Of a stretch of 64,000 nucleotides of DNA, positions 6,862 through 22,017 are shown one piece after another. The position numbers and the translations under genes were made by a program. The notes under the pieces were generated by a model. That model saw only the letters and a list, made by a program, of their open reading frames with translations, did not search any database and was not told the origin of the DNA. Source of the stretch: an uncultured Chloroflexia bacterium. GTDB taxonomy: Bacteria; Chloroflexota; Limnocylindria; Limnocylindrales; CSP1-4. Position 1 is the first letter of the stretch, and the number at the start of each line of letters is the position of its first letter. The stretch covers positions 1,184,001 through 1,248,000 of the forward strand of contig CAVVJT010000007.1 in NCBI GenBank assembly GCA_963748625.1. The letters run 5' to 3'.

Positions 6862-8334
6862 CTAGCTGATCGCCGCGGCGGCGGTCCCGACGATCGTGAG
6901 GAGGATCTCCGGGAAGAGGCCGAACACGATCGTGAGCACCGTGGCAACCGTCAGGCCGGCCCAGACCAGCCGACCGTGGCGCATGACCACCGGTTCGCCC
7001 TCCGCGTCGCGCATCCACATGTAGACCACGACACGAAGGTAGTAGAACGCGGCAACCGCGGCATTGAGCATCGTCACCACGGCGAGGACGGTCATCCAGC
7101 CGCCGGCGTTGACCGCGGCCAGGATCACGTAGAACTTGCCGAAGAAGCCGGCCGTCGGCGGGATGCCGGTGAGGCTCAGCAGGAACAAGGTCATCAGGAT
7201 CGCGAGCTTGGGCTCGCGGCGGATGAGGCCGGCGAACGTCGAGAGGTTGGAGGTCACACCCTGGCGGCGCTGGATGGCCGCGATGACCGCGAAGGCGCCC
7301 AGGTTCATGAACGCGTACGCCGCGCCGTAGAACAGCAGCCCCTCCAGGCCCAGGATCTCGCCCTGTGCGAACGCCGCCAGGCCCACGAGCATGTAGCCGG
7401 TGTGCGCGATGGACGAGTACGCCAGCATGCGCTTGACGTTGTCCTGCGTGAGCGCGACCAGGTTGCCCAGGGTCATCGTGAGGACCGCGAGCACCATGAC
7501 GACGGCACTCCAGTAGTCGGCGGAGAGCGGCCCGAGGGCCTCGCCGAACAGGCGGAGGATCAGGGCGAAGGCACCCACCTTCGGGCCGACCGACAGGTAG
7601 CCGGTGACCGGCGTCGGGGAGCCCTGGTACGCGTCGGGCGTCCAGTAGTGGAACGGGACGGCCGCGATCTTGAACGCGACACCCGTCATCAGGAAGGCAA
7701 GCCCGAGGCCCAGGCCCGGTGTCATGGCGACGGCGCCGCTGGCCATCTGGGTCATGACGGCCGCGACGCCCGAGATGCTCGTGGTGCCCGTGAGACCCCA
7801 GACGAACGCGAGGCCGAACAGGAAGATCGCGGACGAGAAGGAGCCCAGGAGGAAGTACTTGATCGCACCCTCGGTGCTGTAGCCGTCGGTCTTGTGGTAC
7901 CCCGCGAGGATGTAGCCCGGCAGGACCATGAGCTCGAGGCCCAGGAACAGCACCAGCAGGTCCGCGGATGCCGCGATGAGCATCGCGCCCGACATTGCGA
8001 ACGCGAGAATCGCAGCGAACTCGGGCACCGGCAGGCCCCGTGCCTCGAGGTAGTCCGGCGCGAACATCATCGTGAGCGCGACGATCGCGATGAACAGGAT
8101 GTCCAGGAAGGTCGTCAGCGGGTCGACGATGTAGACCCCGTTGAAGGCCGTGGAAGTGGCGCCGTCTGCGCCGACCATCAGGGTCAGGGCCGCGGTCAGC
8201 CCCAGGCCCAGGAACGTGGTCAGCAGCGCCGGGACCTTGCGGCCCGGGAAGATGAAGTCGACGATCAGGACCGCCGCCGCGACGAGGACCGCCGCGATGA
8301 AGGGCGCGATGACGATGACGTCGGAGAAGCTCAC
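6862..8334 (-). CDS. nuoN: NADH-quinone oxidoreductase subunit N
   Basis: EGAIKYFLLGS, FKIAAVPFHYWTPDAYQG, KRMLAYSSIAH. Confidence 0.95.
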   Translation of the reverse strand: MSFSDVIVIAPFIAAVLVAAAVLIVDFIFPGRKVPALLTTFLGLGLTAALTLMVGADGATSTAFNGVYIVDPLTTFLDILFIAIVALTMMFAPDYLEARGLPVPEFAAILAFAMSGAMLIAASADLLVLFLGLELMVLPGYILAGYHKTDGYSTEGAIKYFLLGSFSSAIFLFGLAFVWGLTGTTSISGVAAVMTQMASGAVAMTPGLGLGLAFLMTGVAFKIAAVPFHYWTPDAYQGSPTPVTGYLSVGPKVGAFALILRLFGEALGPLSADYWSAVVMVLAVLTMTLGNLVALTQDNVKRMLAYSSIAHTGYMLVGLAAFAQGEILGLEGLLFYGAAYAFMNLGAFAVIAAIQRRQGVTSNLSTFAGLIRREPKLAILMTLFLLSLTGIPPTAGFFGKFYVILAAVNAGGWMTVLAVVTMLNAAVAAFYYLRVVVYMWMRDAEGEPVVMRHGRLVWAGLTVATVLTIVFGLFPEILLTIVGTAAAAIS

Positions 8335-8344
8335 CGTGGTCCTC

Positions 8345-9895
8345 CTACCGCCACAGGGACTGGGCGACGGGGGCGGCCTGTTGGACGAATTCGAGCGTCG
8401 TCTCGACCGAGCCTTGGATCAAGTCCAGGATGAGACCCGGCCAGAGGCCGAAGATCACGACGAGGGCTCCGAGCGGGACCAGGGTCAACGCCTCGACCGG
8501 CCGCATGTCGGTGAGGTGGGACCCCAAGCCCTTGAGGAAGTCCGATAGTTCGCCGAATGCCACGCGCTGGAACATCCAGAGCAGGTAGCCCGCGGCGAAG
8601 ATCATCACGAAGGTGGCAATCAGAGCCGCCAACTGGTTGGCCTCGAAGGTGCCGACCAGGGTCAGGAACTCGCCGACGAACCCGGACAGGCCCGGCAGGC
8701 CGACCGAGGCGAAGACGAAGAACCCGAACGCCGCGGCGAACACTGGGGTCTTCGACCCGAGGCCACCCATCTTGGCGATGGTGCGGTCATGCGTGCGCTC
8801 GTAGATCACGCCCACGAGGAGGAACAGGGCGCCGGTGATGAGACCGTGGTTGACCATCTGCAGGATCGCGCCCTGGAGGCCCTGTTCCGTGAAGACGAAG
8901 ATGCCCAGCGTCACGAAGCCCATGTGGGACACGGACGAGTAGGCGACCAGCTTCTTGAGGTCCGGCTGGACCAGTGCCACGATCGCGCCGTAGATGATGC
9001 CGATCAGCGAGAGGACGATGATGACCGGCGCCCAGCTGTGGGCGGCCTCGGGGAACAGCGGCAGCGCGAAGCGGATGAAGCCGTAGCCGCCCAGCTTGAG
9101 CAGGACACCGGCCAGGATCACCGAGCCCGCCGTGGGCGCCTCGACGTGGGCGTCGGGCAGCCAGGTGTGGAACGGGAACATCGGGACCTTGATCGCGAAG
9201 GCGAGGAAGAACGCGCCGAAGGCGACCAGGCCGAAGGTGCCGCCGAAGGCGCCGGTCTGTGCGAACGAGGTCAGGTTGGTGACGCTGAAGGCGCCGTCCC
9301 AGGTCCCCGTCGTCGCCTGGTAGGTGTAGGCGCAGGCCAGGATCGCGACCAGCATCAGCAGCGAGCCGACGAGGGTGTACAGGACGAACTTGATCGTGGC
9401 GTAGATGCGGTTCTTGCCGCCCCAGATGCCGATGAGCAGGTACATCGGGACCAGGACCAGCTCCCAGAAGATGTAGAACAGGAACAGGTCCAGGGCGACG
9501 AACACGCCGATCATGCCCACCTCGAGGACCAGGAAGGAGACCATGTACTCCTTGACCCGGTTCTGGATGGGACCGAACGACGCAAGGATGCTGATCCAGG
9601 TGAGGGTCGTCGTCAGGACGACGAGCACGATCGACAGCCCGTCAACGCCCACGGCGTAGTTGATCCCGAACATCGGGATCCACGGGATGCTCTCCATGAA
9701 CTGGTAGCCGGGTGTGCCCGCCACGAAGGCGGCGAGCATCAGGAGCGAGGCGACCCAGGCCGCCAGCGCGAAGCCGAGGGCCGTGTAGCGCGCTGCGTTG
9801 GGCCGGCTCGAGGGCGTGAACGCGACAACGAGCGCGCCCAGGAGCGGCAGGAACGTGACGAGGGTCACGAGCGGGAGCGAGGTCAGCGCGCTCAT
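8345..9895 (-). CDS. nuoM: NADH-quinone oxidoreductase subunit M
   Basis: FYIFWE, KVPMFPFHTWLPDAHVEAP, KKLVAYSSVSHMG; ATG at 9895 overlaps the nuoL stop. Confidence 0.95.
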   Translation of the reverse strand: MSALTSLPLVTLVTFLPLLGALVVAFTPSSRPNAARYTALGFALAAWVASLLMLAAFVAGTPGYQFMESIPWIPMFGINYAVGVDGLSIVLVVLTTTLTWISILASFGPIQNRVKEYMVSFLVLEVGMIGVFVALDLFLFYIFWELVLVPMYLLIGIWGGKNRIYATIKFVLYTLVGSLLMLVAILACAYTYQATTGTWDGAFSVTNLTSFAQTGAFGGTFGLVAFGAFFLAFAIKVPMFPFHTWLPDAHVEAPTAGSVILAGVLLKLGGYGFIRFALPLFPEAAHSWAPVIIVLSLIGIIYGAIVALVQPDLKKLVAYSSVSHMGFVTLGIFVFTEQGLQGAILQMVNHGLITGALFLLVGVIYERTHDRTIAKMGGLGSKTPVFAAAFGFFVFASVGLPGLSGFVGEFLTLVGTFEANQLAALIATFVMIFAAGYLLWMFQRVAFGELSDFLKGLGSHLTDMRPVEALTLVPLGALVVIFGLWPGLILDLIQGSVETTLEFVQQAAPVAQSLWR

Positions 9896-11952
9896 CGGGG
9901 CTGCCCCACGATCCACAGGAAGGAGACCGCCATCACGATCAGGCCGACCGCGATGCCCAGGGCGTAGTTCTGCACCCGCCCCGTCTGGATCCTCCGCAAG
10001 CCTCCGCCTGCGTCCCTGGTCACGCTGCCCACGCCGTTGACGGTGCCGTCCACGATCGCGCGGTCGAACCACCAGAGGAACGCGGCGACGCGGCCGCCGA
10101 TCCGGATGAAGAGCAGGTCATTGAGCTCGTCGAACCACCACTTGTTGAGGGAGGCGCGGTAGAGGAAGCGGGTGCCGCTGTTGCGGGCCACGATCGCGTC
10201 GACCTTCGCCTGCTTCACTGGCCGCTTGAAGATGCCGAACAGGTAGATGCCGACGGAGATGCCGAGGGCCGCCGCGGCGACCGAGATCAGCACGAGAACG
10301 CCGTCGATGCCCATCAGCGCGAACGCCTCGGGCGTGCCGTGGAGGTACTCCTCGGCCTCGTGGAACACCGGCTCGAGCCAGCCGACGATCGTGCTCTCCT
10401 GGCCCAGGAACAGCGCGCCGCCGAGGACCAGGCCCAGGAGCATCGAGGGGATGGCGAGCAGGATCAGCGGGACGGTCATCCACTTGCTGCTCTCATGGAT
10501 GTGCGGTTCGACCGCCGGATCCACGCGGGACTCGCCGTAGAAGGTCTTGCCCATGAGGCGCCACATGTAGAACGCGGTCATGACCGCGACCGTCACGCCG
10601 ATGGCCCAGACCCACTGGAAGCCGAACTTGAACGCCTCGCCCAGGATCTCGTCCTTCGAGAAGAAGCCCGCGAAGGGCGGGATGCCGGCGATCGCGATCG
10701 TGCCGATCAGCATCGTCCAGTGGGTGATCGGGATCTTCCTCCACAGGCCGCCCATCCGGTTCATGTCCTGCTCGTCGTGGACCGCGTGGATCACGGAGCC
10801 GGACCCGAGGAACAGCAGGCCCTTGAAGAAGCCATGGGTCATCAGGTGGAAGATCGCCGGGATGAACGCGCCCACGCCGAGCCCGGAGAACATCAGGCCC
10901 AGCTGGGACAGCGTGGAGTACGCGAGCACGCGCTTGATGTCCGTCTGGGTGAAGGCGATCGACGCAGCGAGGATCGCGGTGAAGATGCCGATCGCGGCCA
11001 CCACCACCATGGCGTCCTGCGCGTGGGCGAACAGCAGGTTGGAGCGGGCGACGAGATAGACGCCCGCGTTGACCATCGTTGCGGCGTGGATCAGGGCAGA
11101 GACCGGGGTGGGACCCTCCATCGCGTCCGGCAGCCAGACGTGGAGCGGGAACTGGGCCGACTTGCCCATCGCGCCCGCGAAGACCAGCAGCGCCACGATC
11201 GTGAGCGGCACCACGTTCTCCGCGCCCGTCTCGGTCATGAGCTTGATGCTGTCCTGGATGTTCAGCGTGCCGGTGTTCACGAAGATCGCCATGATCCCAA
11301 GCGCGAACCCGACGTCACCGACGCGGTTGACGATGAAGGCTTTCTTCGCGGCAAGGGCCGCAGACCGCTTGTGGTACCAGAACCCGATCAGGGAGTAGCT
11401 CGACAGGCCCACCAGCTCCCAGCCCGCGAAGACCAGCACCCAGTTGTTGGCCAGGGTGAGCACGAGCATCGAGAACATGAACAGGTTCAGGTAGGCGAAG
11501 AAGCGCCAGGCCGCCTTGTCGTGCGCCATGTACCCGACCGAGTAGATGTGCACGAGCATGCCGATCGTGGTGACCACGATCAGGAGGGCGGCGGTGAGGG
11601 CGTCGACATGGAAGCCGAGCTCGACCTGGAACGAGCCCGCCGGGATCCATGTCCAGAGCATCACGTCGAGACCCTGCTCGCCGAAGGGCTCCATGTGGTT
11701 CAGGGCGGGCCAGACCACGGCCATCGTGATCAGCCACACGGCGATCACGACCAGGACCGGGACGGCCTCAGCCGCGCCGCGCCCCCACTTCGCCTGCAGC
11801 CGGCGCCCGAACAGCGCGGTGAAGGCGAAGCCGAGGATCGGCAGCAGCGCGATGAGCGGGATCAGGATCCCGTAGATGCCGGGATCGGCGGATGCGCCGC
11901 CTTCGACGGCGGTCTCCGTGGAGGCGAGGATGAGGCTCGGGAGGAAGTGCAT
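9892..11952 (-). CDS. nuoL: NADH-quinone oxidoreductase subunit L
   Basis: GKSAQFPLHVWLPDAMEGPTPVSALIHAATMV, NRVGD, QTGRVQNY. Confidence 0.95.
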   Translation of the reverse strand: MHFLPSLILASTETAVEGGASADPGIYGILIPLIALLPILGFAFTALFGRRLQAKWGRGAAEAVPVLVVIAVWLITMAVVWPALNHMEPFGEQGLDVMLWTWIPAGSFQVELGFHVDALTAALLIVVTTIGMLVHIYSVGYMAHDKAAWRFFAYLNLFMFSMLVLTLANNWVLVFAGWELVGLSSYSLIGFWYHKRSAALAAKKAFIVNRVGDVGFALGIMAIFVNTGTLNIQDSIKLMTETGAENVVPLTIVALLVFAGAMGKSAQFPLHVWLPDAMEGPTPVSALIHAATMVNAGVYLVARSNLLFAHAQDAMVVVAAIGIFTAILAASIAFTQTDIKRVLAYSTLSQLGLMFSGLGVGAFIPAIFHLMTHGFFKGLLFLGSGSVIHAVHDEQDMNRMGGLWRKIPITHWTMLIGTIAIAGIPPFAGFFSKDEILGEAFKFGFQWVWAIGVTVAVMTAFYMWRLMGKTFYGESRVDPAVEPHIHESSKWMTVPLILLAIPSMLLGLVLGGALFLGQESTIVGWLEPVFHEAEEYLHGTPEAFALMGIDGVLVLISVAAAALGISVGIYLFGIFKRPVKQAKVDAIVARNSGTRFLYRASLNKWWFDELNDLLFIRIGGRVAAFLWWFDRAIVDGTVNGVGSVTRDAGGGLRRIQTGRVQNYALGIAVGLIVMAVSFLWIVGQPR

Positions 11953-11964
11953 CTCGATCCCCGC

Positions 11965-12297
11965 CTACTGCCGCATCGCGTCGTACTCGTCGACGAGCGG
12001 CGTCTTCTTGTTGCGGTAGATCGCGATCACGATGGCCAGGCCCACCGTCGCCTCGGCGGCTGCGGCCGCCATCACGACGAGGGCGATGACCGAGGCGTCC
12101 ACGTTCAGCGACAGGCTGAAGGCGCCGAAGGCGATGATCGCGAGGTTGACGGCGTTGAGCATCAGCTCGATCGACATCAGCATGCTGATCGCGTTGCGCC
12201 GCGCCAGGAAGCCGAAGGTGCCGATCGCGAACAGGAGGCCCGCGAGGACCAGGTACGCGTCGAGGCTCTGGCTGATCCCGTCGAGGAAGGAGAGCAT
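11965..12297 (-). CDS. nuoK: NADH-quinone oxidoreductase subunit K
   Basis: RRNAISMLMSIELMLNAVN, AAAEATVGLAI. Confidence 0.95.
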   Translation of the reverse strand: MLSFLDGISQSLDAYLVLAGLLFAIGTFGFLARRNAISMLMSIELMLNAVNLAIIAFGAFSLSLNVDASVIALVVMAAAAAEATVGLAIVIAIYRNKKTPLVDEYDAMRQ

Positions 12298-12833
12298 CAG
12301 TCGGTGCCCCCCTTCTCGCGCTTGGCGATGAAGATCCCGCCGATCACGGCCGAGAGGAGCAGGACGCTCACGACCTCGAACGGGAGGACGTAGCCGTCGA
12401 AGAGGCGGGTCGCGAGCTCCACGGTGTTCGTCCAGATCCGGGCGCCGGACTCCGGCCACTCGGTGGAGGCGACCACCACCGCGATGAGGATCGCGAGCAC
12501 CGCGGATGCGATCGCGGCCGGGAACCACTGGGTCTGGAAGACCAGCTCCCTGGGGCCGGCCTTGGACTGGGTCAGCATGATCGCGAACAGGACCAGCACG
12601 CTGATGGCGCCGATGTAGACGAGCACCTGCGTCGCGGCCACCACGGGGGCCCCCGCCAGCACGTAGAGCCCGGCCAGCGCGGCGAAGCAGATGATCATCG
12701 CCAGGCCGCAGCGGATGATGTCGCGCATGGCGACAACCAGGATGGCCGAGCCGACCATGATGGCCGCCAAGGTCATGAACAGGAGGTCATCCCAAGCGAA
12801 CCCCAGCAGCGGGATCGTCTCCGGCAGCGTCAC
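12297..12833 (-). CDS. nuoJ: NADH-quinone oxidoreductase subunit J
   Basis: QVLVYIGAISVLVLFAIML, YVLPFEVVSVLLL. Confidence 0.93.
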   Translation of the reverse strand: MTLPETIPLLGFAWDDLLFMTLAAIMVGSAILVVAMRDIIRCGLAMIICFAALAGLYVLAGAPVVAATQVLVYIGAISVLVLFAIMLTQSKAGPRELVFQTQWFPAAIASAVLAILIAVVVASTEWPESGARIWTNTVELATRLFDGYVLPFEVVSVLLLSAVIGGIFIAKREKGGTD

Positions 12834-12842
12834 GCGTCCCTC

Positions 12843-15471
12843 TCAGCGTTCGTGGGCGTGGCTCGACCCGTTGCCGGAGTCGTGGCCATTGCCGTTCCCG
12901 AGCGAGGCAGGCAGGACGGGGAGCAGCCGGGCCTGGTCGATGGTTCGACCCTCGGCCCGGGCACGCTCGGCCCAGTCGCGCTCGCGGCGGATGTAGCTCA
13001 TCTCTGTCTCGCGCTCCACCGAGGCCAGGGCGAGCAGGTCGATCATCGGCTCCTCGCGGCTGACGTGGGCAAGCTCGAACTGGTCCGAATCGCGGACGGC
13101 GTCGTACGGGCAGGCGTCGACGCAGATGCCGCACAGGATGCAGCGGCTCTCGTCGACGTCGTACTTCTGCAGCACCCGGGGCTTGGGCATCAGCGCCCCC
13201 GTGGGGCACGTCTCGGCACAGCGGCCGCAGGACACGCACGGCGTGTCGTTGAGGCTCATGTCGAGCGGCGTCGTCACCAGGGTGTCGAAGCCGATCCGCA
13301 TGAAGTCGTAGCAGGCGGCGCCCACCACCTCTGCGCAGACGTTGGCGCAGCGGCCGCAGTCGATGCAGCGCGAGGGCTCGCGGAGGATGAAGGCGTGGGA
13401 GTCGTCGCGGACGTAGTCGTGGTTGACGCCGGTGAAGCGGTTCTCGGTGACCGAGCGGTACCCGGCGCCCTGGTGGTAGCCCTTCTCCAGGGACTTGAGC
13501 GTGGTCCCGTACTCGATGCCCAGGCGGCGCAGGTCGCAGAAGCCAATCGCCTCGCAGGTGCACTGCAGGCAGCGGGTGGACTCCTTGATGGCCTCGTCGC
13601 GGGTGTACGGAATCTCGTACTCGACGTACGTGGTCTTGACCTCTTCGAGGTCCAGGGCCTTGAGGCGGTAGCGCGGCTCCTTCGGCTCGCCGGTGAACGG
13701 CACGATCGAGAGGAACTCCGGCTGCGGCTCGGCCAGCGTCTGGCGGGTCCGGATGGCGGCGAGGTCGTTGCCCTTGAGGTAGGCGTCCACCGCGTAGGCG
13801 GCACGCCGACCCTCGGCGATGGCCTGGACCACGGTCGCGGCGCCGATTCGCACGTCGCCGGCGCCGAAGACGCCGGGGCGGCCGGTCTCGAAGGTGACCG
13901 CGTCGGCCTGGAGCCGGCGGTTCTTCGTGGCCGCGATCCCGCCGGACCCGTTGCCGAGCCAGCGCAGGTCGGGGCCCTGGCCGATCGCGAGCATGACGCG
14001 GTCGCAGGGGATGGTGAACTCGGTGCCGGCGGCGGGCTCGGGGCGGCGGCGACCGGACGCGTCGGGCTCGCCCAGCTGCATCCGGATGAACTCGATGCCC
14101 TCCACCTTGCCGCTCTCGCCCACGATCACGCGGGTGGGGCCGGCCTGGAAGATGGCGACGACGCCCTCATCGAGCGCCTCGTGGACCTCGGAGGCCGCCG
14201 GCATGTCCTTCATGTCGCGCCGGTAGACCAGCGTGACCTCGGGGCTGCCCTGGCGGATGGAGGTGCGCACGGTGTCCATCGCGGAGAAGCCACCGCCGAC
14301 CACCACGACGCGGGCCTTGTCATGGCCCGGGTACGGGAGGCCCAGGGTGGCGGTGCGCAGGTAGTCGAGGGCGTCGATGACGCCGTCCGCGTCCTCGCCC
14401 GGGATGCCGAGCTTGTTCGTGTCGTAGCAGCCGATGGCGACCACGACCGCGTCGAAGCCCTGGTGCTGCAGGTCCTCGACCGTGAAGTCCTTGCCCAGCT
14501 CCTGGTTGCAGCGCATCTTCCCACCGAGGCGGGTGACGGACTCGTACTCAGCCTCGAGGACCTCGACCTTGGGCAGGCGGTACTGCGGGATGCCGTACCG
14601 GAGCATGCCGCCCGGCGCAGGGTCACGCTCGAAGACGGTCACTTCGTGGCCCGAGAGCAGGAGGTAGAAGGCGGCCGACATGCCGGCGGGTCCGGAGCCG
14701 ATGACGGCGGCGCGGCGGCCGGACGGGGCCTGCTTCTCGAAGGGGAGCGGGGGATCGACGTTCTCGTCGTGCATGGCGCGCAGGACCTGGTCGCCGGCGT
14801 ACCGGTGGCTGTCGCGGATCGCGATCGCCTCGTCGACCTCGTCGCGCCGGCAGTGCTCCTCGCACGGGGCGGGACAGACGCGGCCGAGCACGCTGGGGAA
14901 CGGGATGGTGCGCTTGAAGATCCGCACCGACTCGCGCCAGTTCGCCTCGGCGTTCGCCTTGAGGAAGCCCGGGATGTCGATGTGGCTGGGGCACTTGTTC
15001 TGGCAGGGCGGCAGGCAGTACGCGTTGTGGTCCGAGAAGATCAGCTCGAGGTTGGTCTTGCGGATCCGGCGCAGCTCGTCGGTCTGGGTCTGGACCTTCA
15101 TCTCGGGCTCGGCCAGGCGCGAGCAGGAGATCGGCGGCTGGTCCTCGCCCTCCACCTCGACCACGCACATCCGGCAGGCACCGAAGCCCGGCAGCTTGGG
15201 CTCGTAGCAGAGGGTGGGGATCTCGATGCCGTTGTCACGGCAGACCTCGAGGATCGTCTGGCCCTCGAAGCCCTCGATCAGGCGGCCGTCCACCTCGAGG
15301 CGGATGCGCGGCGTGCTCTGGGGCCGCTGCGGGCTCTGCGTGGTGATGAACCGCTCCGCGAGGGAGTCCTCGCTGCGGCGTGATGGTGTCCAGGGTGGCC
15401 GGCTGGTCGGGCCGGACCTCCTTGTTGCGGGTCGCGGGGACGTCCTGGGGACGAACGATGAGGTCGGCCAT
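12843..15471 (-). CDS. NuoG-N / GltD-like FAD-NADPH iron-sulfur flavoprotein fused to the C-terminal half of NuoI (apparent frameshift near 15375; main frame 12843-15293)
   Basis: 2Fe-2S motif IPTLC...GACRMC...SC; GltD Fe-S motifs PCQNKCP and VCPAPCEEHCRR; GSGPAG FAD motif; GGGFSAMD...VYRR NADPH motif; three CxxCxxCxxxC motifs, the last followed by NuoI-like FELA..SR. Confidence 0.85.
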
Positions 15472-16809
15472 CAGCGGGCTCCTGCTGCCGTCGCACCGGC
15501 GCCCATCGCGATCGGCGTACAGACGCCGGCCGGGCAGGTGGAGCGAACAAGGTGGTCGTCGAGCTCGGAGCGGAAGTGGCGCATGGCGCTGGTGAACGCC
15601 AGGGTGGCCTTGCGCTCGTGGTCGCAGAGCGCGGAGGCCGAGATGTCGTGGGCGAGGTCCTCGAGCAGGACCGCGTCGTTGGCGCGCGGGGTGCCCGCCG
15701 CGATCCGGTCGCCGATCTCCGAGAGACGGCGCAGGCCGATGCGGCACGGGATGCTCTTCCCGCAGGCGTTGTCGGCGGAGAAGCGGGTCAGGAGCCGGGC
15801 GAGGTCGACGACACAGGCCCGGTCGTCCGCGATCACCACGGAGCCGGAGCCGACGTGCGCGCCGGCGGCCTCGAGCGAGGCGTAGTCGTAGGGGGTGTCC
15901 AGGAGGTCGGCCGGGAGGAGCCCGCCCGTGGAGCCGCCGACCAGGACCGCCTTGAGCGGGCGCCCGCCGGTGCCGCCCGGCAGCGGCCACGAGGTCACGT
16001 AGCGGGGTGCCCAGGGCCACCTCGACGATGCCGCCGCCCTGCGGGCCACGGACCGCGACGAGCGTGGTGCCCGGCGAGCCAGGGATGCCGATGGCCGAGT
16101 ACGCCTCACCGCCCAGCCGCACGATCCAGGGGACCGCGGCGAGCGTGAGGATGTTGTGGACAAGGGTGGGCTTGTCGAACAGGCCGCGCTCGGTGGGGTA
16201 GGGCGGCTTCTGCTCGGGCTGGCCGCGCTTGCCCTCGAGGGCCTTGAGCAGGACCGTCTCCTCGCCCAGCATGTAGGCCCCCTGGAGGCCGCGGACCGTC
16301 ACGTTGACCGTGTGCCCGGAACCCAGGATGTCCTCGCCCAGGAGGTTCGCCTCCTCGGCCGCCTGGACCGCGCCCTCGAGCATGGCCACAAGCCCCGCGT
16401 CCTCGCCGCGGACGACGAGGATCGCCTCCGTGGCGCCGACGGCGTAGGCCGCGATCACGAGGCCCTCGATGACGAGGTACGGGTCGGCGGTGAGCAGCGC
16501 CTGGTCGATGCGGACCGACGGGTCGGCGCCGTAGCCGTTGGCGACCACGTAGCGCTGGACGGGGCCGGACTCGGCGACCGCGCGCCACTTGTCGGCGGCG
16601 GGGTAGCCGGCGCCGCCGCGGCCGCGCAGCCCGGCGGCCCGGATGGTCGCCATCGTGGTGGTGCCGCCATCGCGGACGGCCTTGCGCAGGCCCTCGAACG
16701 CGCCCGCCTTGACGGCGGCGTCCAGGTCGGCCGGGTTGGCCTTGAGCGTCTCCATGCGGCCGGTGAGGACCGCGGGCGTGCCGGCCTTGGCGGGGAGGAA
16801 GGTGGTCAT
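15471..16809 (-). CDS. NuoF/HydB-like flavoprotein, degenerate, with a +1 frameshift near 15978
   Basis: GLRGRGGAGYP, GAYMLGEET, LEGKRGQP..KPPYP, GSGSVVI, CGKSIPCR, CPAGVC; two overlapping ORFs join at gccgggcggc. Confidence 0.85.
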
Positions 16810-17471
16810 CAGCTCGCCTTGCCCCCGTAGCCGAGCGACGCGTCGAGCGCCGAGCGGAAGCGGTCCTCGGCCACGACCTGCGCGGTGCCGGCCGCGGGTG
16901 CGGTCGCGACGGCCGGCGGCTCGAAGCGGAGGTGCCGGTAGTAGGTCGCGGTGCCGTAGATCATCGCGTACCAGGCGCCCGTGGCGCGGGAGATGTGCTT
17001 GAGCGCGGCCACCGGCAGGTAGCCGTACTCGGCCTGCGTCTCGTCGAGGATCGCGAGCATCTCCTTGGGGTCCCAGTCATGGGCCTCGAGGATCGCGTCG
17101 AGCGGGGCGATGTCGATGCCGTCGAAGCGGGTGTACGCCATGTCGGCAACCGGGCGGCCGGAGCGGCGCAGCGCGGACTCCTCGCGGCGCTCGCCGTAGG
17201 TCTCGGATGCGCCCCAGTGGACGTGGAACCGGCCCTTGGTGTCCACGCCGCCCATGTCGATGCACTCGATCGGACAGGCCTGGGCGCACTGGAAGCAGGT
17301 CTCGCACTTGAGCGAGCCGTACTCGTCGTACAGGAGCTGCAGGCGGCCGCGGAACTTGGGCGCGACGTCCGCCTTCTCCTCGGGCCACTTGATGGTCGCC
17401 TTCGGCTGGAAGAAGCGGCGCAGCGTCAGGCTCATGCCGCGGACGAGACCGATGCCGGGGATCGTGTTCAT
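16809..17471 (-). CDS. Fusion of the NuoI N-terminal half and a NuoE N-terminal helical domain
   Basis: TIKWPEEK...FRGRLQL...CETCFQCAQACPIECI (a single cluster motif), then LAILDETQAEYGYLP...IYGTATYY..LR (NuoE-N); no Cys afterwards. Confidence 0.85.
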   Translation of the reverse strand: MNTIPGIGLVRGMSLTLRRFFQPKATIKWPEEKADVAPKFRGRLQLLYDEYGSLKCETCFQCAQACPIECIDMGGVDTKGRFHVHWGASETYGERREESALRRSGRPVADMAYTRFDGIDIAPLDAILEAHDWDPKEMLAILDETQAEYGYLPVAALKHISRATGAWYAMIYGTATYYRHLRFEPPAVATAPAAGTAQVVAEDRFRSALDASLGYGGKAS

Positions 17472-17474
17472 CGG

Positions 17475-18872
17475 TCAGCCACCCTGGATGGTCTTGACCA
17501 CGATGATCGCCGTGGCCGTGAGGAACAGGTTGAGCAGAGCAGCGGGCAGGAGCCACTTCCAGGCGAAGCCCATGAGGTGGTCGATCCGCACGCGCGGGAA
17601 CGTGGCGCGCATCCAGACGAAGACGAAGACGAAGGCGAAGCTCTTGATGAAGAACCAGAGCATGCCCGCGACCCAGTCCCAGCTGATGAACGCGAACAGG
17701 AACGCTGCGCCGATCGCCACCACGTTGAACAGCAGGAAGCCCGCCACCAGCGCCTTCCAGGCGGGAGCGCCGCGCTTGGCGAGGTAGTACGGCAGGGCGA
17801 ACAGCAGCGTCAGGACCACCGGCACGACCAGCAGGAGCACCAGCAGGCCCATGCCCAGGCTGCCCGGGTCGAGGCTGATGGTGATCGGCTGGAGGCTGGT
17901 GCCGGCCCAGGAGTTGATCCACGCGAGGGTGGCGTTGAGGTCGACCGGCGCGTTCCAGGCCCCGAAGAAGAAGGTCGTCAGCAGCGCCGACACGATGAAC
18001 ACGTTCACGTACTCGGCGAAGAACAGGAAGCCGAACCGCATGCCCGAGTACTCGGTGGCGAAGCCGGCGACGATCTCCGAGTCCGCCTCGGTGAGGTCGA
18101 ACGGCGTCCGGTTGGCCTCCGCGATGGAGGCGATGAAGAAGATCAGCGCGCCCAGCGGCTGGCGGAAGACGAACCAGTCGGTGAACCAGCCCGCCTGCTG
18201 GTTGGCCAGCTCGTAGACCGACAACGAGCCCGCGAGCAGGATCAGGCCCACGACCGAGAGGGTCAGCGGGATCTCGTACGAGACCATCTGCGCCGCGGAG
18301 CGCAGGCCGCCCAGCAGCGAGTACTTGTTGCTTGACGACCAGCCGGCGAGCAGCAGGCCCACCACCGTCATGCCGCCCACCGCGAACAGGTAGAGCACGC
18401 CGATGTTGAGGTCCTGGCCGACGAGGCCCGGGCCGAACGGGATGACCAGGAACGTCATCACCGCGGTCAGGAACACGAGGACGGGCGCCCACGTGAACAC
18501 GAGCACGTCGGCGTTGCCGGGGGTGAAGTCCTCCTTGGTCAGCACCTTGAGACCTGCGACCACGGAGTGGGCGGCGCCCTTGGGGCCGACCCGGTCCGGG
18601 CCCACGCGGAGGTTCATGAAGGCGATGACCTTCAGCTCCATGTAGATGATGAGGAACGCGGCCGGGATGCTGAACAGCAGGACGCCGGTGATGGCGACCA
18701 GGAACCGGACGATCCCCATGTTCGAGCTGAGCACGTCCGCCAGCCACGGGCCCAGGACTGTCAGCGCGAAGATCGCCAGGAGCGGCCCGACCACCAGGAC
18801 TAGGACCAGCAGCGGGATGACGATCTTGCCGAGGACCGTCATGTTGTTCCAGGTGCGGGTGAGTGTCGTCAT
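17475..18872 (-). CDS. nuoH: NADH-quinone oxidoreductase subunit H
   Basis: RVGPDRVGP, NKYSLLGGLRSAAQMVSYE, NRTPFDLTEADSEIVAGFATEYSG. Confidence 0.95.
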   Translation of the reverse strand: MTTLTRTWNNMTVLGKIVIPLLVLVLVVGPLLAIFALTVLGPWLADVLSSNMGIVRFLVAITGVLLFSIPAAFLIIYMELKVIAFMNLRVGPDRVGPKGAAHSVVAGLKVLTKEDFTPGNADVLVFTWAPVLVFLTAVMTFLVIPFGPGLVGQDLNIGVLYLFAVGGMTVVGLLLAGWSSSNKYSLLGGLRSAAQMVSYEIPLTLSVVGLILLAGSLSVYELANQQAGWFTDWFVFRQPLGALIFFIASIAEANRTPFDLTEADSEIVAGFATEYSGMRFGFLFFAEYVNVFIVSALLTTFFFGAWNAPVDLNATLAWINSWAGTSLQPITISLDPGSLGMGLLVLLLVVPVVLTLLFALPYYLAKRGAPAWKALVAGFLLFNVVAIGAAFLFAFISWDWVAGMLWFFIKSFAFVFVFVWMRATFPRVRIDHLMGFAWKWLLPAALLNLFLTATAIIVVKTIQGG

Positions 18873-18880
18873 CGTCCGGC

Positions 18881-20125
18881 CTACTTGTCGATGCCGCCCA
18901 TGATCGGGTCGAGCGATGACATCACTGCCATCGTGTCCGCGATCAGGTTGCCCTTCACCAGCAGGCCGACCAGCTGCAGGTTCACAAACGACGGGTCGTG
19001 GATCTTGAGCCGGAACGGCTGGTCGGTGCCGTCGGAGATGGCGTAGGTTCCGAACAGGCCGCGCGGGCCTTCGACAGCCGCCCAGGCGCGCCCGGGCCGC
19101 GGCCGGACCAGCCGGGGCAGGCGTGCCATGACGGGTCCATCGGGCATGTTGTGGAGGCACTGGTCGATGATCCGCAGGCTCTGCTTGATCTCGTCGAGGC
19201 GCAGCAGGTAGCGGTCCAGGGAGTCACCGCCCTCCGGGCCGGTGCCGCGGACGGGGATGTCGAACTCGAGCTCCGGGTACACGGAGTAGGGATGGTCGCG
19301 GCGGAGGTCGAACTTGACCCCGGCGGCCCGCAGGTTGGGGCCGGTGACACCCATCCGGAACGCGAGGTCGGGGTCCACCCGGCCGATGTCGCGCATGCGG
19401 CGGACGAAGATCTCGTTCTCGTTGAGCAGGCCGGCGTTGGCCTCGATCTGGGTCAGCGCGCGGCTCATCCAGTCGCCCAGGCGGGACATGAACTCGTGGT
19501 TGACGTCGCCGTTCACGCCGCCGATGCGGAAGTAGTTGAACAGCATCCGCTGGCCGGTGATGGAGGCCAGCATCTCCACGATCTCGTCGCGCTCGATGAA
19601 CGCGTAGAGGATGGGCGTGAGGCCGCCGAGGTCGAGCGCCATGAACCCCTGGAAGAGGCCGTGGCTCGAGATGCGCAGCAGCTCGCCGGTCAGCACGCGG
19701 ATGTACTCGGCGCGCCTGGGGACCTCGACGTCGAGCAGCTGCTCGAACGCCATCACCGGCGCCCACTCGCAGAACAGCGAGCTCACGTACTCGAGCGGGT
19801 CCATCTGGGTGATGACGTGGTGGTAGTCCGAGTTCTCGGCGATCTTCTCCACGCCCCGGTGGAGGTATCCGAGGACCGGGTCCAGGTCCACGACCTGCTC
19901 GCCGTTGATCTTGAGGACGACGCGCAGCACGCCGTGCGTGGACGGGTGGTGCGGACCCATGTTGATGAGCATCTCGCCGTCGGCCACGGAGTAGAACTCG
20001 GCCTCGCGCTCGGTGCGCGGCGGATACGGCGGGATGGACTCGAACTGCCCGATCTGGTCGTCGAGCATGATCCGCGGGTCGTCCAGGGAGGGGTGCTGGC
20101 CCGGGCGGGCCTGGGAGGTCGTCAT
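18881..20125 (-). CDS. nuoD: NADH-quinone oxidoreductase subunit D
   Basis: NMGPHHPSTHGVLR, LGYLHRGVEK, VEGPRG, SLDPIMGGIDK. Confidence 0.95.
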   Translation of the reverse strand: MTTSQARPGQHPSLDDPRIMLDDQIGQFESIPPYPPRTEREAEFYSVADGEMLINMGPHHPSTHGVLRVVLKINGEQVVDLDPVLGYLHRGVEKIAENSDYHHVITQMDPLEYVSSLFCEWAPVMAFEQLLDVEVPRRAEYIRVLTGELLRISSHGLFQGFMALDLGGLTPILYAFIERDEIVEMLASITGQRMLFNYFRIGGVNGDVNHEFMSRLGDWMSRALTQIEANAGLLNENEIFVRRMRDIGRVDPDLAFRMGVTGPNLRAAGVKFDLRRDHPYSVYPELEFDIPVRGTGPEGGDSLDRYLLRLDEIKQSLRIIDQCLHNMPDGPVMARLPRLVRPRPGRAWAAVEGPRGLFGTYAISDGTDQPFRLKIHDPSFVNLQLVGLLVKGNLIADTMAVMSSLDPIMGGIDK

Positions 20126-20127
20126 GG

Positions 20128-20676
20128 TCAGGCCTTCACCGTGCGGCGCACGACACGCTCCGTCGCCTGGACGGGCACGTGGGACCGCTCCATCTGGCGC
20201 ACGCCGGCGCCGGGGGAGCGGGCGGCGTCGTCGGGGAGATAGAAGTCCTTGCGGAGCGGAAAGCTGACGTAGTCCGGCGGCATGTAGATGCGCCGCAGGT
20301 CCCGGTTCCCCTCGAAGACGATCCCGAACATGTCGTACGTCTCGCGCTCCATCCACTCGGCACCGGGCCACAGGCCGGTCAGCGTGGGTACGCGCGGGTT
20401 GTCACGCGGGAGCGGTTCGCAGATCACGCGCAGCCAGTCCGGCGTCGTGGCCGCCCAGACGTGGTAGGTCACGTTCATGTGCTCGCCGGTGTCCACGCCG
20501 GCAAGGTCCGCCAGCATGACGAAGGCGAAGTCCGGCTCGTCGTGGAGCGCGGTCAGGACCTCGATGACGTCCGCCGGGCCGACGCGGATCTCGGTCTGGT
20601 CGTGCCGCTGGCGGACGGGTCCCACGAGCCTGTCCGCGAACCGTGCCTCGAGGCGCTTGCGCAGCTGACGGTCCAC
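20128..20676 (-). CDS. nuoC: NADH-quinone oxidoreductase subunit C
   Basis: WPGAEWMERETYDMFGIVFEG..DLRRI...PLRKDF. Confidence 0.93.
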   Translation of the reverse strand: MDRQLRKRLEARFADRLVGPVRQRHDQTEIRVGPADVIEVLTALHDEPDFAFVMLADLAGVDTGEHMNVTYHVWAATTPDWLRVICEPLPRDNPRVPTLTGLWPGAEWMERETYDMFGIVFEGNRDLRRIYMPPDYVSFPLRKDFYLPDDAARSPGAGVRQMERSHVPVQATERVVRRTVKA

Positions 20677-20678
20677 GG

Positions 20679-21428
20679 CTAGACGTCCTTCGGCACGGTG
20701 GGGCCGACGCGGTGCTCGTCCCAGTGGCCGCGCCGCTCCTTCACGAGCTGGCCCAGCTTCATCATCCCGTAGATGAGACCCTCGGGACGCGGCGGGCACC
20801 CGGGGACGTACACGTCCACCGGCATCAGGCGGTCGATGCCCTCAACCGTGGCGTACGAGCGCTTGTAGCGGCCGCCCGAGCAGGTGCAGTCACCCATCGC
20901 CACGCACCACTTGGGCTCCGGCATCTGCTCCCACAGGCGGACGAGCGGACCGGCCATCTTGGTGGTGAGCGTGCCCGCGACGATCAGCACGTCCGCCTGG
21001 CGGGGGCTGGCGCGGAACGGGAACATGCCCCAGCGGTCCATGTCGTTCTTGGACGTGGCGCTGGACATCATCTCGAACGCGCAGCAGGCGAGGCCCGACA
21101 GCAGCGGCCAGAGGCTGTTCATCCGGATCAGGTCGACGATGTAGTCGGCCTTGGTGGGGATCACCTCGAGCTGGCCCCAGCGCGCGGTGTCGGACACCTG
21201 GCCGTCCGTGCCCTCGAGGGCCGCGAGGTGGTAGTAGGGCGCGGGGGCCGGGTAGGCGGCGGGGTTGTTCGAGGCCCAGAGGGAGTTCGGCACGATCAGC
21301 GGGGCCGCCACGCCGGACGGCTGTGCCGAGACCAGCGCGCCGGGCAGGCTCCCGGGCTGGTCAGCGCCAATGGGTGAGGCATCACCCGCCGCGGCAGCGG
21401 CCTCGGGACCTTCGGGGTTCAGCGCCAC
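20679..21428 (-). CDS. nuoB: NADH-quinone oxidoreductase subunit B
   Basis: GLACCAFEMM, RASPRQAD, VDVYVPGCPPRPE. Confidence 0.95.
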   Translation of the reverse strand: MALNPEGPEAAAAAGDASPIGADQPGSLPGALVSAQPSGVAAPLIVPNSLWASNNPAAYPAPAPYYHLAALEGTDGQVSDTARWGQLEVIPTKADYIVDLIRMNSLWPLLSGLACCAFEMMSSATSKNDMDRWGMFPFRASPRQADVLIVAGTLTTKMAGPLVRLWEQMPEPKWCVAMGDCTCSGGRYKRSYATVEGIDRLMPVDVYVPGCPPRPEGLIYGMMKLGQLVKERRGHWDEHRVGPTVPKDV

Positions 21429-21775
21429 GACAGCACTCCCTTGCGCCAGGCATAGGCGAGGCCGAGCAGGAGGACGCCGACGAAGATCAGCATGCTCACG
21501 AGGCCGCCCAGCAACAGGTCCTGGAAGACCAGGGCCCAGAGGTAGATGAACACGACCTCGATGTCGAAGGCCACGAACATCAGCGCGTAGATGTAGAAGC
21601 TGATGCCGAACCGGGCGTGGGTGTCGCCGTAGGTGTCGATGCCCGACTCGTAGGGGTAGCCCTTGTGCTCGTCACCGCGGGTGCGGTGGGAGATCAGCCA
21701 GGCCAGGCCGATCGTGCCGAAGACGAACAGGGTGCCGGCGATGGCGAACCCGACGACATACCAGATCCCGGTCAC
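21419..21775 (-). CDS. nuoA: NADH-quinone oxidoreductase subunit A
   Basis: PYESG, FYIYALMFVAFDIE, YAWRKGVLSW; GTG start inferred. Confidence 0.93.
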   Translation of the reverse strand: MTGIWYVVGFAIAGTLFVFGTIGLAWLISHRTRGDEHKGYPYESGIDTYGDTHARFGISFYIYALMFVAFDIEVVFIYLWALVFQDLLLGGLVSMLIFVGVLLLGLAYAWRKGVLSWR

Positions 21776-21885
21776 GTGATCCTCGAGGTCGAATGGGACC
21801 GCGTGTGCACTGCGCGGTCCGCGTTCGAGGTGTGATGGTTTGTTGCGTGTGCACCGGACCTCACTGGGCGAGGCACGGCGCGGAC

Positions 21886-21894
21886 ATTCTAGCA
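21886..21894 (-). promoter_or_regulatory. Candidate extended -10 promoter of the nuo operon
   Basis: TG-c-TAGAAT on the minus strand, about 110 bp upstream of nuoA. Confidence 0.45.
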
Positions 21895-22017
21895 AGGCAG
21901 GTGCTGGAGGAATCACCTTCCGGCCCAGTCATGGCGGCCCATCCGGCTCTCAACGTGGGGGCCGGTGGCGCCCTCCGGGTGGCACGCGGTCGTGACCGGC
22001 GCCGGCTCGATCGCCAC

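Follow-up and report, generated by a model that had tools for sequence, protein, structure and literature searches.

A 64,000-nucleotide stretch from an uncultured Chloroflexota bacterium (GenBank assembly GCA_963748625.1, contig CAVVJT010000007.1, positions 1,184,001 to 1,248,000; hereafter the window, with positions counted from its first letter) encodes a respiratory complex I in which the NuoI subunit is divided between two proteins, each half being fused to a component of an electron-input module. The window, with a G+C content of about 70%, contains one minus-strand nuo operon (6862-21916) with the gene order nuoA-B-C-D-H-X-Y-Z-J-K-L-M-N, where the nuoI slot between nuoH and nuoJ is occupied by three genes, here called X, Y, and Z. 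The split of NuoI within this operon is real: the N-terminal half opens X and the C-terminal half lies near the end of Z. We conclude that this variant of complex I is real and conserved and, to all appearances, has not been described before. Overall, the explanation that we consider likely is that X, Y, and Z constitute the electron-input end of a non-canonical, proton-pumping complex I, with an NADPH-type module and with clusters N6a and N6b held across two polypeptides. The split was proposed in an earlier note on this DNA, made from the sequence alone, and the coordinates and minus-strand placement given there were borne out by the open reading frame (ORF) listing. The three genes and their domains are as follows.

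16809-17471, minus strand: X, 220 amino acids (aa), NuoI N-half plus a truncated NuoE/BfuC-like domain (ORF list, profiles)
17223-17471, minus strand: NuoI N-half in X, residues 1-83, with one CxxCxxCxxxCP motif (C56, C59, C62, C66, P67); TIGR01971 positions 1-66 and chain 7a23_D
16899-17108, minus strand: NuoE-like N-terminal helical domain of X, residues ~122-191; PF01257 positions 2-64 of 145
15471-16809, minus strand: Y, NuoF/BfuB-core homolog, 445 codons plus one extra base; TIGR01959 9-266, then 268-409 in the next frame
12843-15471, minus strand: Z, StnC/NfnA-like with the NuoI C-half at its end, 875 codons plus one extra base (profiles, structure search)
15081-15290, minus strand: [2Fe-2S] NuoG/HydA-type N-terminal domain of Z (C29, C40, C43, C57); PF13510, residues 2-71
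13764-15011, minus strand: GltD/NfnB-type domain of Z, with two [4Fe-4S] sites and FAD and NAD(P)H Rossmann folds (GGG...YRR); PF14691, PF07992, PRK12814 (545 bits)
13191-13388, minus strand: NuoG/HydA-type 2x[4Fe-4S] domain of Z (C643/646/649/653, C686/689/692/696); PF22117, residues 636-701, and TIGR02512
13041-13178, minus strand: NuoI C-half, Z residues 706-751, with the second CxxCxxCxxxCP motif (C718, C721, C724, C728, P729); TIGR01971 positions 71-116 and chain 7a23_D

Residues 12-78 of X match positions 1-66 of the 121-position NuoI profile TIGR01971 (51.2 bits, E = 8.5e-14), and in Z the match lies within the last 115 aa, of which residues 5-50 cover positions 71-116 (44.3 bits, E = 1.2e-11). 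On the solved plant TYKY chain 7a23_D, X 1-73 falls on residues 68-140 and the tail of Z on residues 152-201. The two halves are thus complementary and do not overlap on NuoI, and both alignments confirm the earlier note's claim that X holds one CxxCxxCxxxCP motif and that the second lies at the end of Z; the C-half had been put at ~13020-13170 and is now placed at ~13041-13178. The break point thus falls in the loop between the two motifs. All eight cluster-ligand cysteines are present across X (C56, C59, C62, C66) and Z (C718, C721, C724, C728); the Cys and Pro residues of the X motif are invariant in a 10-row alignment, those of the Z C-half, including P729, in 13 of 13 sequences, and a conserved tail of Z runs on from the NuoI C-half to position 12843. 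In the 2x[4Fe-4S] ferredoxin fold, each cluster is bound by three Cys of one motif plus a fourth supplied by the other motif, so that N6a and N6b would need both X and Z. Co-folding of X 1-118 with Z 636-816 and four [4Fe-4S] clusters, performed without control runs, gave a score of 0.25 and a mark of 0.32.

No intact nuoI was found in the whole 4.6-Mb genome: none of the 34 NuoI-like matches reached the TIGR01971 cut-off for full-length NuoI (113.05 bits), with X (51.9 bits) and Z (43.3 bits) ranking second and third. The best match, a 114-aa ORF (53.7 bits, positions 9-118), scored 80 bits as a formate-hydrogenlyase iron-sulfur subunit and sits with hydrogenase-4-type membrane subunits, a NuoC/D-like large subunit, and a NuoB-like small subunit; it is part of another complex, of the hydrogenase-4/formate-hydrogenlyase type. 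Three other Limnocylindria genomes (G006, G025, and G049) likewise yielded no intact nuoI, the two halves being their only NuoI-like matches linked to the operon. An intact copy elsewhere, which the earlier note had named as a reason to abandon the split, was accordingly not found, and the locus is predicted to encode the only complex I of this bacterium and its class. The genomes G025 and G049 encode a single NuoB, and Y is their only NuoF-like gene; G006 has a weaker, below-cut-off pair of NuoB-like and NuoI-like genes ~57 kb from the operon, probably of hydrogenase type. The hydrogenase-4/formate-hydrogenlyase-type cluster of the genome studied here (G000:C7:64001-78000, L121), which lies outside the window and resembles group 4 [NiFe]-hydrogenases, has NuoI-, NuoB-, NuoC/D-, and antiporter-like subunits of its own.

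The closest solved relatives of Z are 9bov_A (520 bits, Z 2-729 on 9-700 of 1178), StnC 8oh5_C (468 bits, 3-730 on 10-701 of 1172), and NfnA 9n5u_A (465 bits). Residues 2-730 of Z align with the first ~700 residues of StnC/NfnA and keep the FAD and NADPH motifs; the GltD-type domain aligns with those of 9bov_A and 8oh5_C, which bind NADPH. Like these proteins, Z combines a [2Fe-2S] N-terminal domain, a GltD-type FAD/NADPH domain with two [4Fe-4S] sites (the GltD/dihydropyrimidine-dehydrogenase-type pair at residues 93-171, Rossmann folds at 195-495), and a NuoG-type ferredoxin domain. Across 13 sequences with 44-90% identity, the [2Fe-2S] Cys, H89/C93/C97/C101, both ferredoxin motifs, and the FAD and NAD(P)H motifs GxGxxG, GGG...YRR, and GGMLRYGIP are invariant. 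The ORF listing gives only an 816-aa core of Z (12843-15293), and the best NCBIfam model is named "putative NADPH-dependent glutamate synthase small subunit." An AlphaFold2 model of Z from the 13-row alignment had a mean pLDDT of 55.4, with residues 516-816 all below 50. Antisense to Z runs an 843-aa open frame (plus strand, 12852-15383), rich in Arg, Ala, and Gly, which resembles the shadow frames usual at 70% G+C.

The Stn/NfnABC enzymes ("Nfn-Bfu"; 8oh5, 9bov, 9n5u) share the three-gene order of a NuoE-like, a NuoF-like, and a [2Fe-2S]-GltD-ferredoxin protein. According to the available text of PMC10482914, StnC oxidizes NADPH at a non-bifurcating FAD, from which electrons pass via clusters C7, C6, C5, C4, and C3 to StnB, and its residues 683-1172 make up an inactive FdhF-like domain through which the tetramer is formed and which carries clusters C1 and C2 as a dead-end branch. 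In Z, this FdhF-like domain is replaced: the protein ends ~90 residues past the point where the FdhF-like domain of StnC starts, and the stretch is the NuoI C-half.

The structure search for Y used the intact ortholog from G006, which matched HydB 8a6t_B (346 bits), NfnB 9n5u_B (340 bits), 9bov_B (338 bits), and StnB 8oh5_B (323 bits), with lower scores, 237-259 bits, for the NuoF chains of solved bacterial complex I/NuoEF structures. The match spans the core only (NfnB residues 126-537 of 602, HydB 160-573 of 630), and lacks both the [2Fe-2S] domain found at the N terminus of bifurcating BfuB and the 2x[4Fe-4S] domain at its C terminus. Against the NuoF profile TIGR01959, Y of the window scored 225.7 + 94.4 bits, short of the cut-off of 558.65 for canonical NuoF. 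Four further NuoF-like genes, all below the NuoF cut-off, occur in the genome (C4:370788-372002, C5:87404-88600, C7:667467-668648, and C10:1227165-1228250); two of them adjoin NuoE-like genes, and they probably encode soluble dehydrogenases or hydrogenases.

The earlier note had X switching to a NuoE-like domain after the NuoI half. NuoE homology is indeed present, but it is confined to the helical start of the family, with no [2Fe-2S] cysteines. In more distant relatives of X (24-27% identical), the same one-motif NuoI half is followed by a complete NuoE domain that retains its Cys. Names given to X by sources are "NAD(P)H-dependent oxidoreductase subunit E," which NCBI uses for some of its relatives, or "ferredoxin"; with such misleading names for X and Z, pathway tools will score this complex I as lacking NuoI.

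Taken as a whole, X-Y-Z is best described as a stripped Stn/NfnABC-type module rather than NuoE/F/G. Z has a GltD insert and no MopB-like domain, so a canonical NuoE/F/G N-module is not encoded, and a complete Bfu-type core is not encoded either: Y lacks the cluster-bearing end domains and has three of the four N3 Cys, and X lacks the [2Fe-2S] domain. The "E/F/G-like" label of the earlier note is therefore imprecise, the module consisting of a GltD-type FAD/NADPH domain joined to a stripped NuoF/BfuB core and a truncated NuoE. Compared with Stn/Nfn, the domains with a proposed role in ferredoxin reduction are missing; in addition, Stn is soluble, tetrameric, and ferredoxin dependent, as far as the available text of PMC10482914 describes it, whereas X-Y-Z is encoded inside a nuo operon.

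The arrangement is conserved in nearly all of the class, which, from the names attached to close relatives, is Candidatus Limnocylindria. Among 3389 candidates in the database, 2943 relatives of X were found at E <= 1e-3; the best 120 share 78-100% identity with it and have lengths of 213-236 aa, some being labeled as Candidatus Limnocylindrales, Limnocylindria, or Chloroflexota metagenome-assembled genomes (MAGs). X was present in 40 of 41 related genomes. Within the class, 147 of 151 genomes have it (108 of 110 high-quality genomes and 35 of 35 genera), including one family of streamlined genomes of ~1.0-1.4 Mb; the 151 include six unpublished genomes (G102, G122, G126, G131, G145, and G156), all with a match, and excluding these the count is 141 of 145. 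The order H-X-Y-Z-J was seen in all six relatives that were fetched. We also compiled the 80 loci that best matched the Z alignment, all from uncultured Limnocylindrales/Chloroflexota MAGs and none from outside this group. Of these, 71 hold all six parts, in the order H<X<Y<Z<J in every case, and all 80 loci carry the NuoI C-half motif. The expectation that related genomes would show the same split was thus borne out.

Purifying selection acts on all parts of X-Y-Z, the flavin-domain half of Y being the least constrained. By the Nei-Gojobori method with five relatives, dN/dS was 0.15-0.20 for Z, 0.18-0.30 for X, 0.16-0.41 for the second half of Y, and 0.29-0.48 for its first half, with 0.10-0.41 for the comparison genes NuoB, D, H, and J. 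Identity of Z is 76-90% within the order. In a second family within the class, additional genes amounting to 1.6-5 kb separate Z from nuoJ. One of these (L036, G049:C2, 10963-12348, plus strand) codes for a protein of 461 aa in which an SRPBCC (polyketide cyclase-like) domain is combined with an NmrA/epimerase-type NAD(P)H-binding domain, and which bears some resemblance to the NDUFA9-type accessory subunit of mitochondrial complex I; at another locus (L035, 10398-15673), a HAD hydrolase gene lies in the same place together with several ORFs that match no Pfam family.

The remaining genes of the operon are those of a complex I.

18881-21916, minus strand: nuoA, nuoB, nuoC, nuoD (NCBIfam; the listed ORF starts are over-extended)
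17475-18719, minus strand: nuoH, 414 aa, directly upstream of X (NF004741, 316 bits, cut-off 305; start from the translation)
12297-12833, minus strand: nuoJ, 9 bases past the Z stop (NF005168, 121 bits, cut-off 154; best family NuoJ)
6862-12270, minus strand: nuoK, nuoL, nuoM, nuoN (NCBIfam)

NCBIfam cut-offs, given in brackets, were exceeded by NuoB at 212 bits (116), NuoD at 399 (360), NuoH at 316 (305), NuoK at 100.6 (57), NuoL at 711 (407.5), NuoM at 598 (264), and NuoN at 421 (333), so that the core set of NuoB, D, H, L, M, and N is recognizable at cut-off in a single operon. For NuoA, NuoC, and NuoJ, the expected family was the best match, yet below its cut-off. All nuo genes other than Y and Z are unbroken in the window. 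Elsewhere in the window, ARAGORN called a 93-base tRNA-Pro (ggg) on the minus strand at 2935-3027, a doubtful call, and no Rfam family reached its gathering score anywhere in the window.

In the explanation that we favor, the N-half in X and the C-half in Z would fold jointly into the usual 2x[4Fe-4S] ferredoxin fold, with N6a and N6b each ligated by Cys from both proteins, as the logic of this fold suggests. The joined halves would dock X-Y-Z onto NuoB/NuoD and thereby extend the cluster chain of Z to N2 and quinone. The main electron entry would be the GltD-type FAD site of Z, with NADPH as the most likely donor, and electrons would pass from FAD to the two GltD clusters, the NuoG-type clusters, N6a/N6b, N2 in NuoB, and finally quinone, while NuoH/A/J/K/L/M/N would pump protons. 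Y and the NuoE stub of X would serve mainly as a structural partner of Z, perhaps with a second, altered flavin site, all features that enable bifurcation in the Bfu core apparently having been lost. Several points weigh against this explanation. The assignment of NADPH as the donor is inferred from the likeness of Z to StnC/NfnA and from the YRR motif, which we take to be NADPH related. All relatives are uncultured MAGs. Y keeps the glycine-rich FMN loop and GEET, and its altered NGYGADP loop is itself conserved; the protein may still bind flavin and nucleotide, and NADH input could be possible. Finally, the window carries two frameshifts within 600 bases, one in Y and one in Z, the more noticeable because the same assembly has rpoC and rpoB in uninterrupted frames of 1530 and 1185 aa.

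The cofactor sites of Y were compared in an alignment of 13 Y loci with the canonical NuoF proteins of two other Chloroflexota (G283 and G331). The canonical N-x-D-E-x-E-P-G-x-F loop is present in both NuoF proteins, and the acidic loop is also found in the aligned HydB/NfnB chains, unlike in Y, where the canonical loop was seen in none of the 13: C-N-C-D-E-S-E-P-G-T-F-K-D-R of NuoF is changed to A-N-G-Y-G-A-D-P... or similar in all of them. Among the best 80 related loci, the loop was located in 63, reading NGYGADP in 56 and a one-off variant in 6, and never N-x-D-E. In the N3 motif CGKCxPC, the second Cys gives way to S, T, or A in the nine Limnocylindria Y of the alignment but is kept in the four Y from free-standing clusters (see below); among the 80 related loci, 47 have T and 30 have S at this position, none has Cys, and in 3 the position was not found. 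GRGG(A/G)G, GEET, and PPYP are retained. The NADH site and N3 of Y are thus remodeled in a conserved fashion, and the flavin site of Z is unaltered.

These features bear on an alternative in which NADH, oxidized at the FMN of Y, would be the main donor and the GltD domain of Z a second port, making the enzyme either a dual NADH/NADPH:quinone oxidoreductase or a ferredoxin-free, membrane-anchored, Stn-like transhydrogenase. The retained flavin-site motifs (G(R)GGAG, GEET, PPYP) and the constancy of NGYGADP (56 of 63 located loops) are compatible with such a role, as are the dN/dS values of 0.16-0.48 for Y and its retention in ~1.1-Mb genomes, with Y as the sole NuoF-like gene in G025 and G049. 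However, the acidic D-E...E-P-G-x-F loop is absent from every Y compared and present in the G283/G331 NuoF and in HydB/NfnB, the second N3 Cys is replaced in all Limnocylindria Y, constraint within the operon is weakest in the first half of Y, and X of this lineage has lost the NuoE [2Fe-2S] domain. We regard NADH as the main donor as unlikely.

Y and Z are each interrupted in the window, at two sites that the earlier note had passed over although they bear on its proviso that these genes might be decaying.

15974-15978, minus strand: frameshift site 1, near 15976, one extra base in the G-rich Y linker between LVAAAG and GTGGRPLKAV (relatives, contigs)
15372-15376, minus strand: frameshift site 2, near 15374, one extra base in the Z extension, between MADLIVRP...TLDTITPQ and EDSLAERFITTQSPQRPQSTPRIRLEVDGR (relatives, contigs)

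As a result, Y is listed as two overlapping frames (15235-16809 and 15471-16163). The start of Y overlaps the stop of X, and its stop overlaps the start of Z (TGATG), the true start of Z being an ATG at ~15471 that opens a conserved extension of ~60 aa, broken near 15374. This extension, MADLI.RP...(E/D)SLAERL(I/L)TTQSPQRPQSTPRIR(L/I)E, continues into the [2Fe-2S] domain in each of the nine same-order relatives compared and was in frame in 76 of 78 loci, 74 by expression and two (L043 and L048) by eye. Y occupies a single frame in all six fetched relatives and in 73 of the 75 covering loci among the best 80, by which programmed frameshifting in Y is ruled out. Metagenomic contigs with ~95% identity to the window have one base fewer at 15976 (one run) and at 15374 (two runs). 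In the public sequencing runs, the best share of window words was 0.23, the matches being relatives' contigs and a few identical 151-base pieces, one of which ends at 15974, just short of the Y shift. Among the related loci, L118 is broken in the linkers of both Y and Z and L084 in that of Y; the same G-rich Y linker is frameshifted in both as in the window, and it looks like a recurrent weak spot of assembly. In a further locus (L023, G005:C15, 7150-11733, minus strand), Y and Z form one open frame with no stop in between, via ...AAGAAHRDIAEMADLITRP..., which could be a natural fusion or an assembly indel.

Both frameshifts are quite probably consensus errors in length-variable linkers. The competing explanation is decay in this strain, the shifts being real, Y and full-length Z not being made, and complex I being lost. 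Two single-base insertions within 600 bases invite this reading, and the intact rpoB and rpoC indicate that the assembly is not generally indel-ridden, so that two nearby shifts stand out; the public runs, given their low share of window words, leave room for it as well. Several observations argue otherwise. The genome has no other NuoI or complex I to fall back on, the remaining nuo genes are all open, and dN/dS downstream of the Y shift, measured against the closest relative, is 0.16, which would make any loss very recent. Moreover, both sites lie in linkers that vary in length, a ~95%-identical contig lacks the extra base at each of them, and an assembly hot spot better fits the breakage of the same two linkers in L118, a different species, and of one of them in L084. 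Decay of this operon is therefore improbable.

To look beyond the class, 201 genomes of the phylum were sampled (three of them, G217, G313, and G338, unpublished); at least 14 genomes from four other families (f10, f25, f29, and f47) encode a protein spanning the NuoI N-half and the NuoE stub. A family of X-like proteins with the full NuoE domain (P0243) has 1192 relatives at E <= 1e-20, one of them named by NCBI as coming from a Thermoleophilia MAG. In the four outside-class genomes that were fetched (G283, G331, G299, and G199), the genes form a free-standing NuoB'-X-Y-Z cluster, in which Z is 44-47% identical to that of the window; in the one such cluster whose flanks were scanned, the neighbors are unrelated genes, for isocitrate dehydrogenase and, at the opposite end, for a glycosidase. 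G283 and G331 additionally possess a canonical operon of 14 genes, whose NuoI is intact and above the cut-off, and a third locus, nuoA-C-D-H, that lacks exactly NuoB and NuoI. The scattered loci (L031-L034, L124, and L125) look like the parts of a second complex I spread over at least two places. The window proteins are closer to the scattered copies than to the canonical ones, with identities of 54-61% vs 48-50% for NuoB, 41-44% vs 35-38% for NuoD, and 41-47% vs 28-36% for NuoA. NuoB'-X-Y-Z together with nuoA-C-D-H lacking B and I provides independent genomic evidence that X-Y-Z works with complex I. These clusters also indicate that the split is not tied to the H-J slot. The insertion of a three-gene module into the nuoI of an 11-subunit complex I, as originally envisaged, agrees with the gene order; because other Chloroflexota carry the same halves in free-standing NuoB-X-Y-Z clusters, however, the split may have arisen either within an operon or in such a cluster.

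The same clusters bear on the suggestion that the NuoI-like pieces do not reassemble, so that X and Z would hold separate clusters or none, the likeness to NuoI being incidental and the product a soluble Stn-like enzyme that happens to be encoded inside the operon. The joining of the halves is indeed predicted from sequence. Yet, given that no other nuoI exists, the complex would then have no N6a/N6b at all; the matches to NuoI extend beyond the Cys motifs, to the N-terminal segment of X and an FE-L tail in Z; the pieces occupy precisely the nuoI slot, flanked by nuoH and nuoJ, in all 71 complete loci; and the free-standing cluster travels with NuoB, its partner cluster being without B and I. 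Non-assembly is accordingly very improbable. A chimeric assembly junction can be dismissed, given that the same order occurs in six of six relatives, in 71 of 71 complete loci from assemblies made independently, including single-contig genomes, and across the class.

We know of no complex I or group 4 hydrogenase relative in which an input module is welded on through a split NuoI. Canonical NuoI (Nqo9, TYKY, NDUFS8) occupies the same operon position between nuoH and nuoJ, and its N-terminal segment, both motifs, and the sequence past the motifs align with X and Z; it is, however, one polypeptide, whereas here the fold is spread over two, with each half fused to an input-module protein. In NDH-1, electrons enter through ferredoxin-binding Ndh subunits. 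The 11-subunit complex I, NDH-1, and Fpo share the order A-B-C-D-H-[I]-J-K-L-M-N, with no E-F-G between D and H, and, as here, an input other than the NADH module on the Q-module; as described in the accessible part of Moparthi and Hagerhall (2011, PMC3144371), they differ in having an intact NuoI and separate input proteins (FpoF), in contrast to a module fused to both NuoI halves. The second nuo cluster of C. aurantiacus contains an intact nuoI, according to the accessible text of PMC3150298, and is hence a different arrangement.

The nearest published concept, to the extent that the accessible text of Schut et al. (2022, PMC9304861) covers it, is the predicted "Nuo-Bfu" of Geobacter and others, reported there from Deferribacteres, Proteobacteria, Planctomycetes, and Nitrospirae. 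Nuo-Bfu is predicted to be a 14-subunit A-N enzyme with a complete bifurcating BfuBC core, for which NADH plus ferredoxin was proposed; the term NuoI is absent from that paper, and in the accessible text neither a GltD domain nor a split is mentioned for Nuo-Bfu. The earlier note knew of no described example, and a split NuoI was likewise not found in the literature searched, which included the accessible parts of PMC3144371, PMC3150298, 10.1101/2021.02.01.429150, PMC10482914, and PMC9304861 and extended to neither subscription journals nor supplements.

Few respiratory enzymes have been studied as thoroughly as complex I, in which NuoI ranks with the most conserved core subunits. The occurrence of a split NuoI in nature shows that the Q-module interface tolerates radical rewiring and can be viewed as a natural experiment on the recruitment of input modules in the evolution of complex I. 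It is conceivable, although we advance it tentatively, that the whole class, with some other Chloroflexota (and Thermoleophilia, going by one source name), has a proton-pumping NADPH:quinone oxidoreductase in which a de-bifurcated Stn/Nfn module has taken the place of the canonical NADH module and is joined via the split NuoI, with N6a/N6b shared. If the donor is NADPH, its oxidation would be directly coupled to proton pumping, and metabolic models of Limnocylindria, which are common in soil and freshwater metagenomes, would change.

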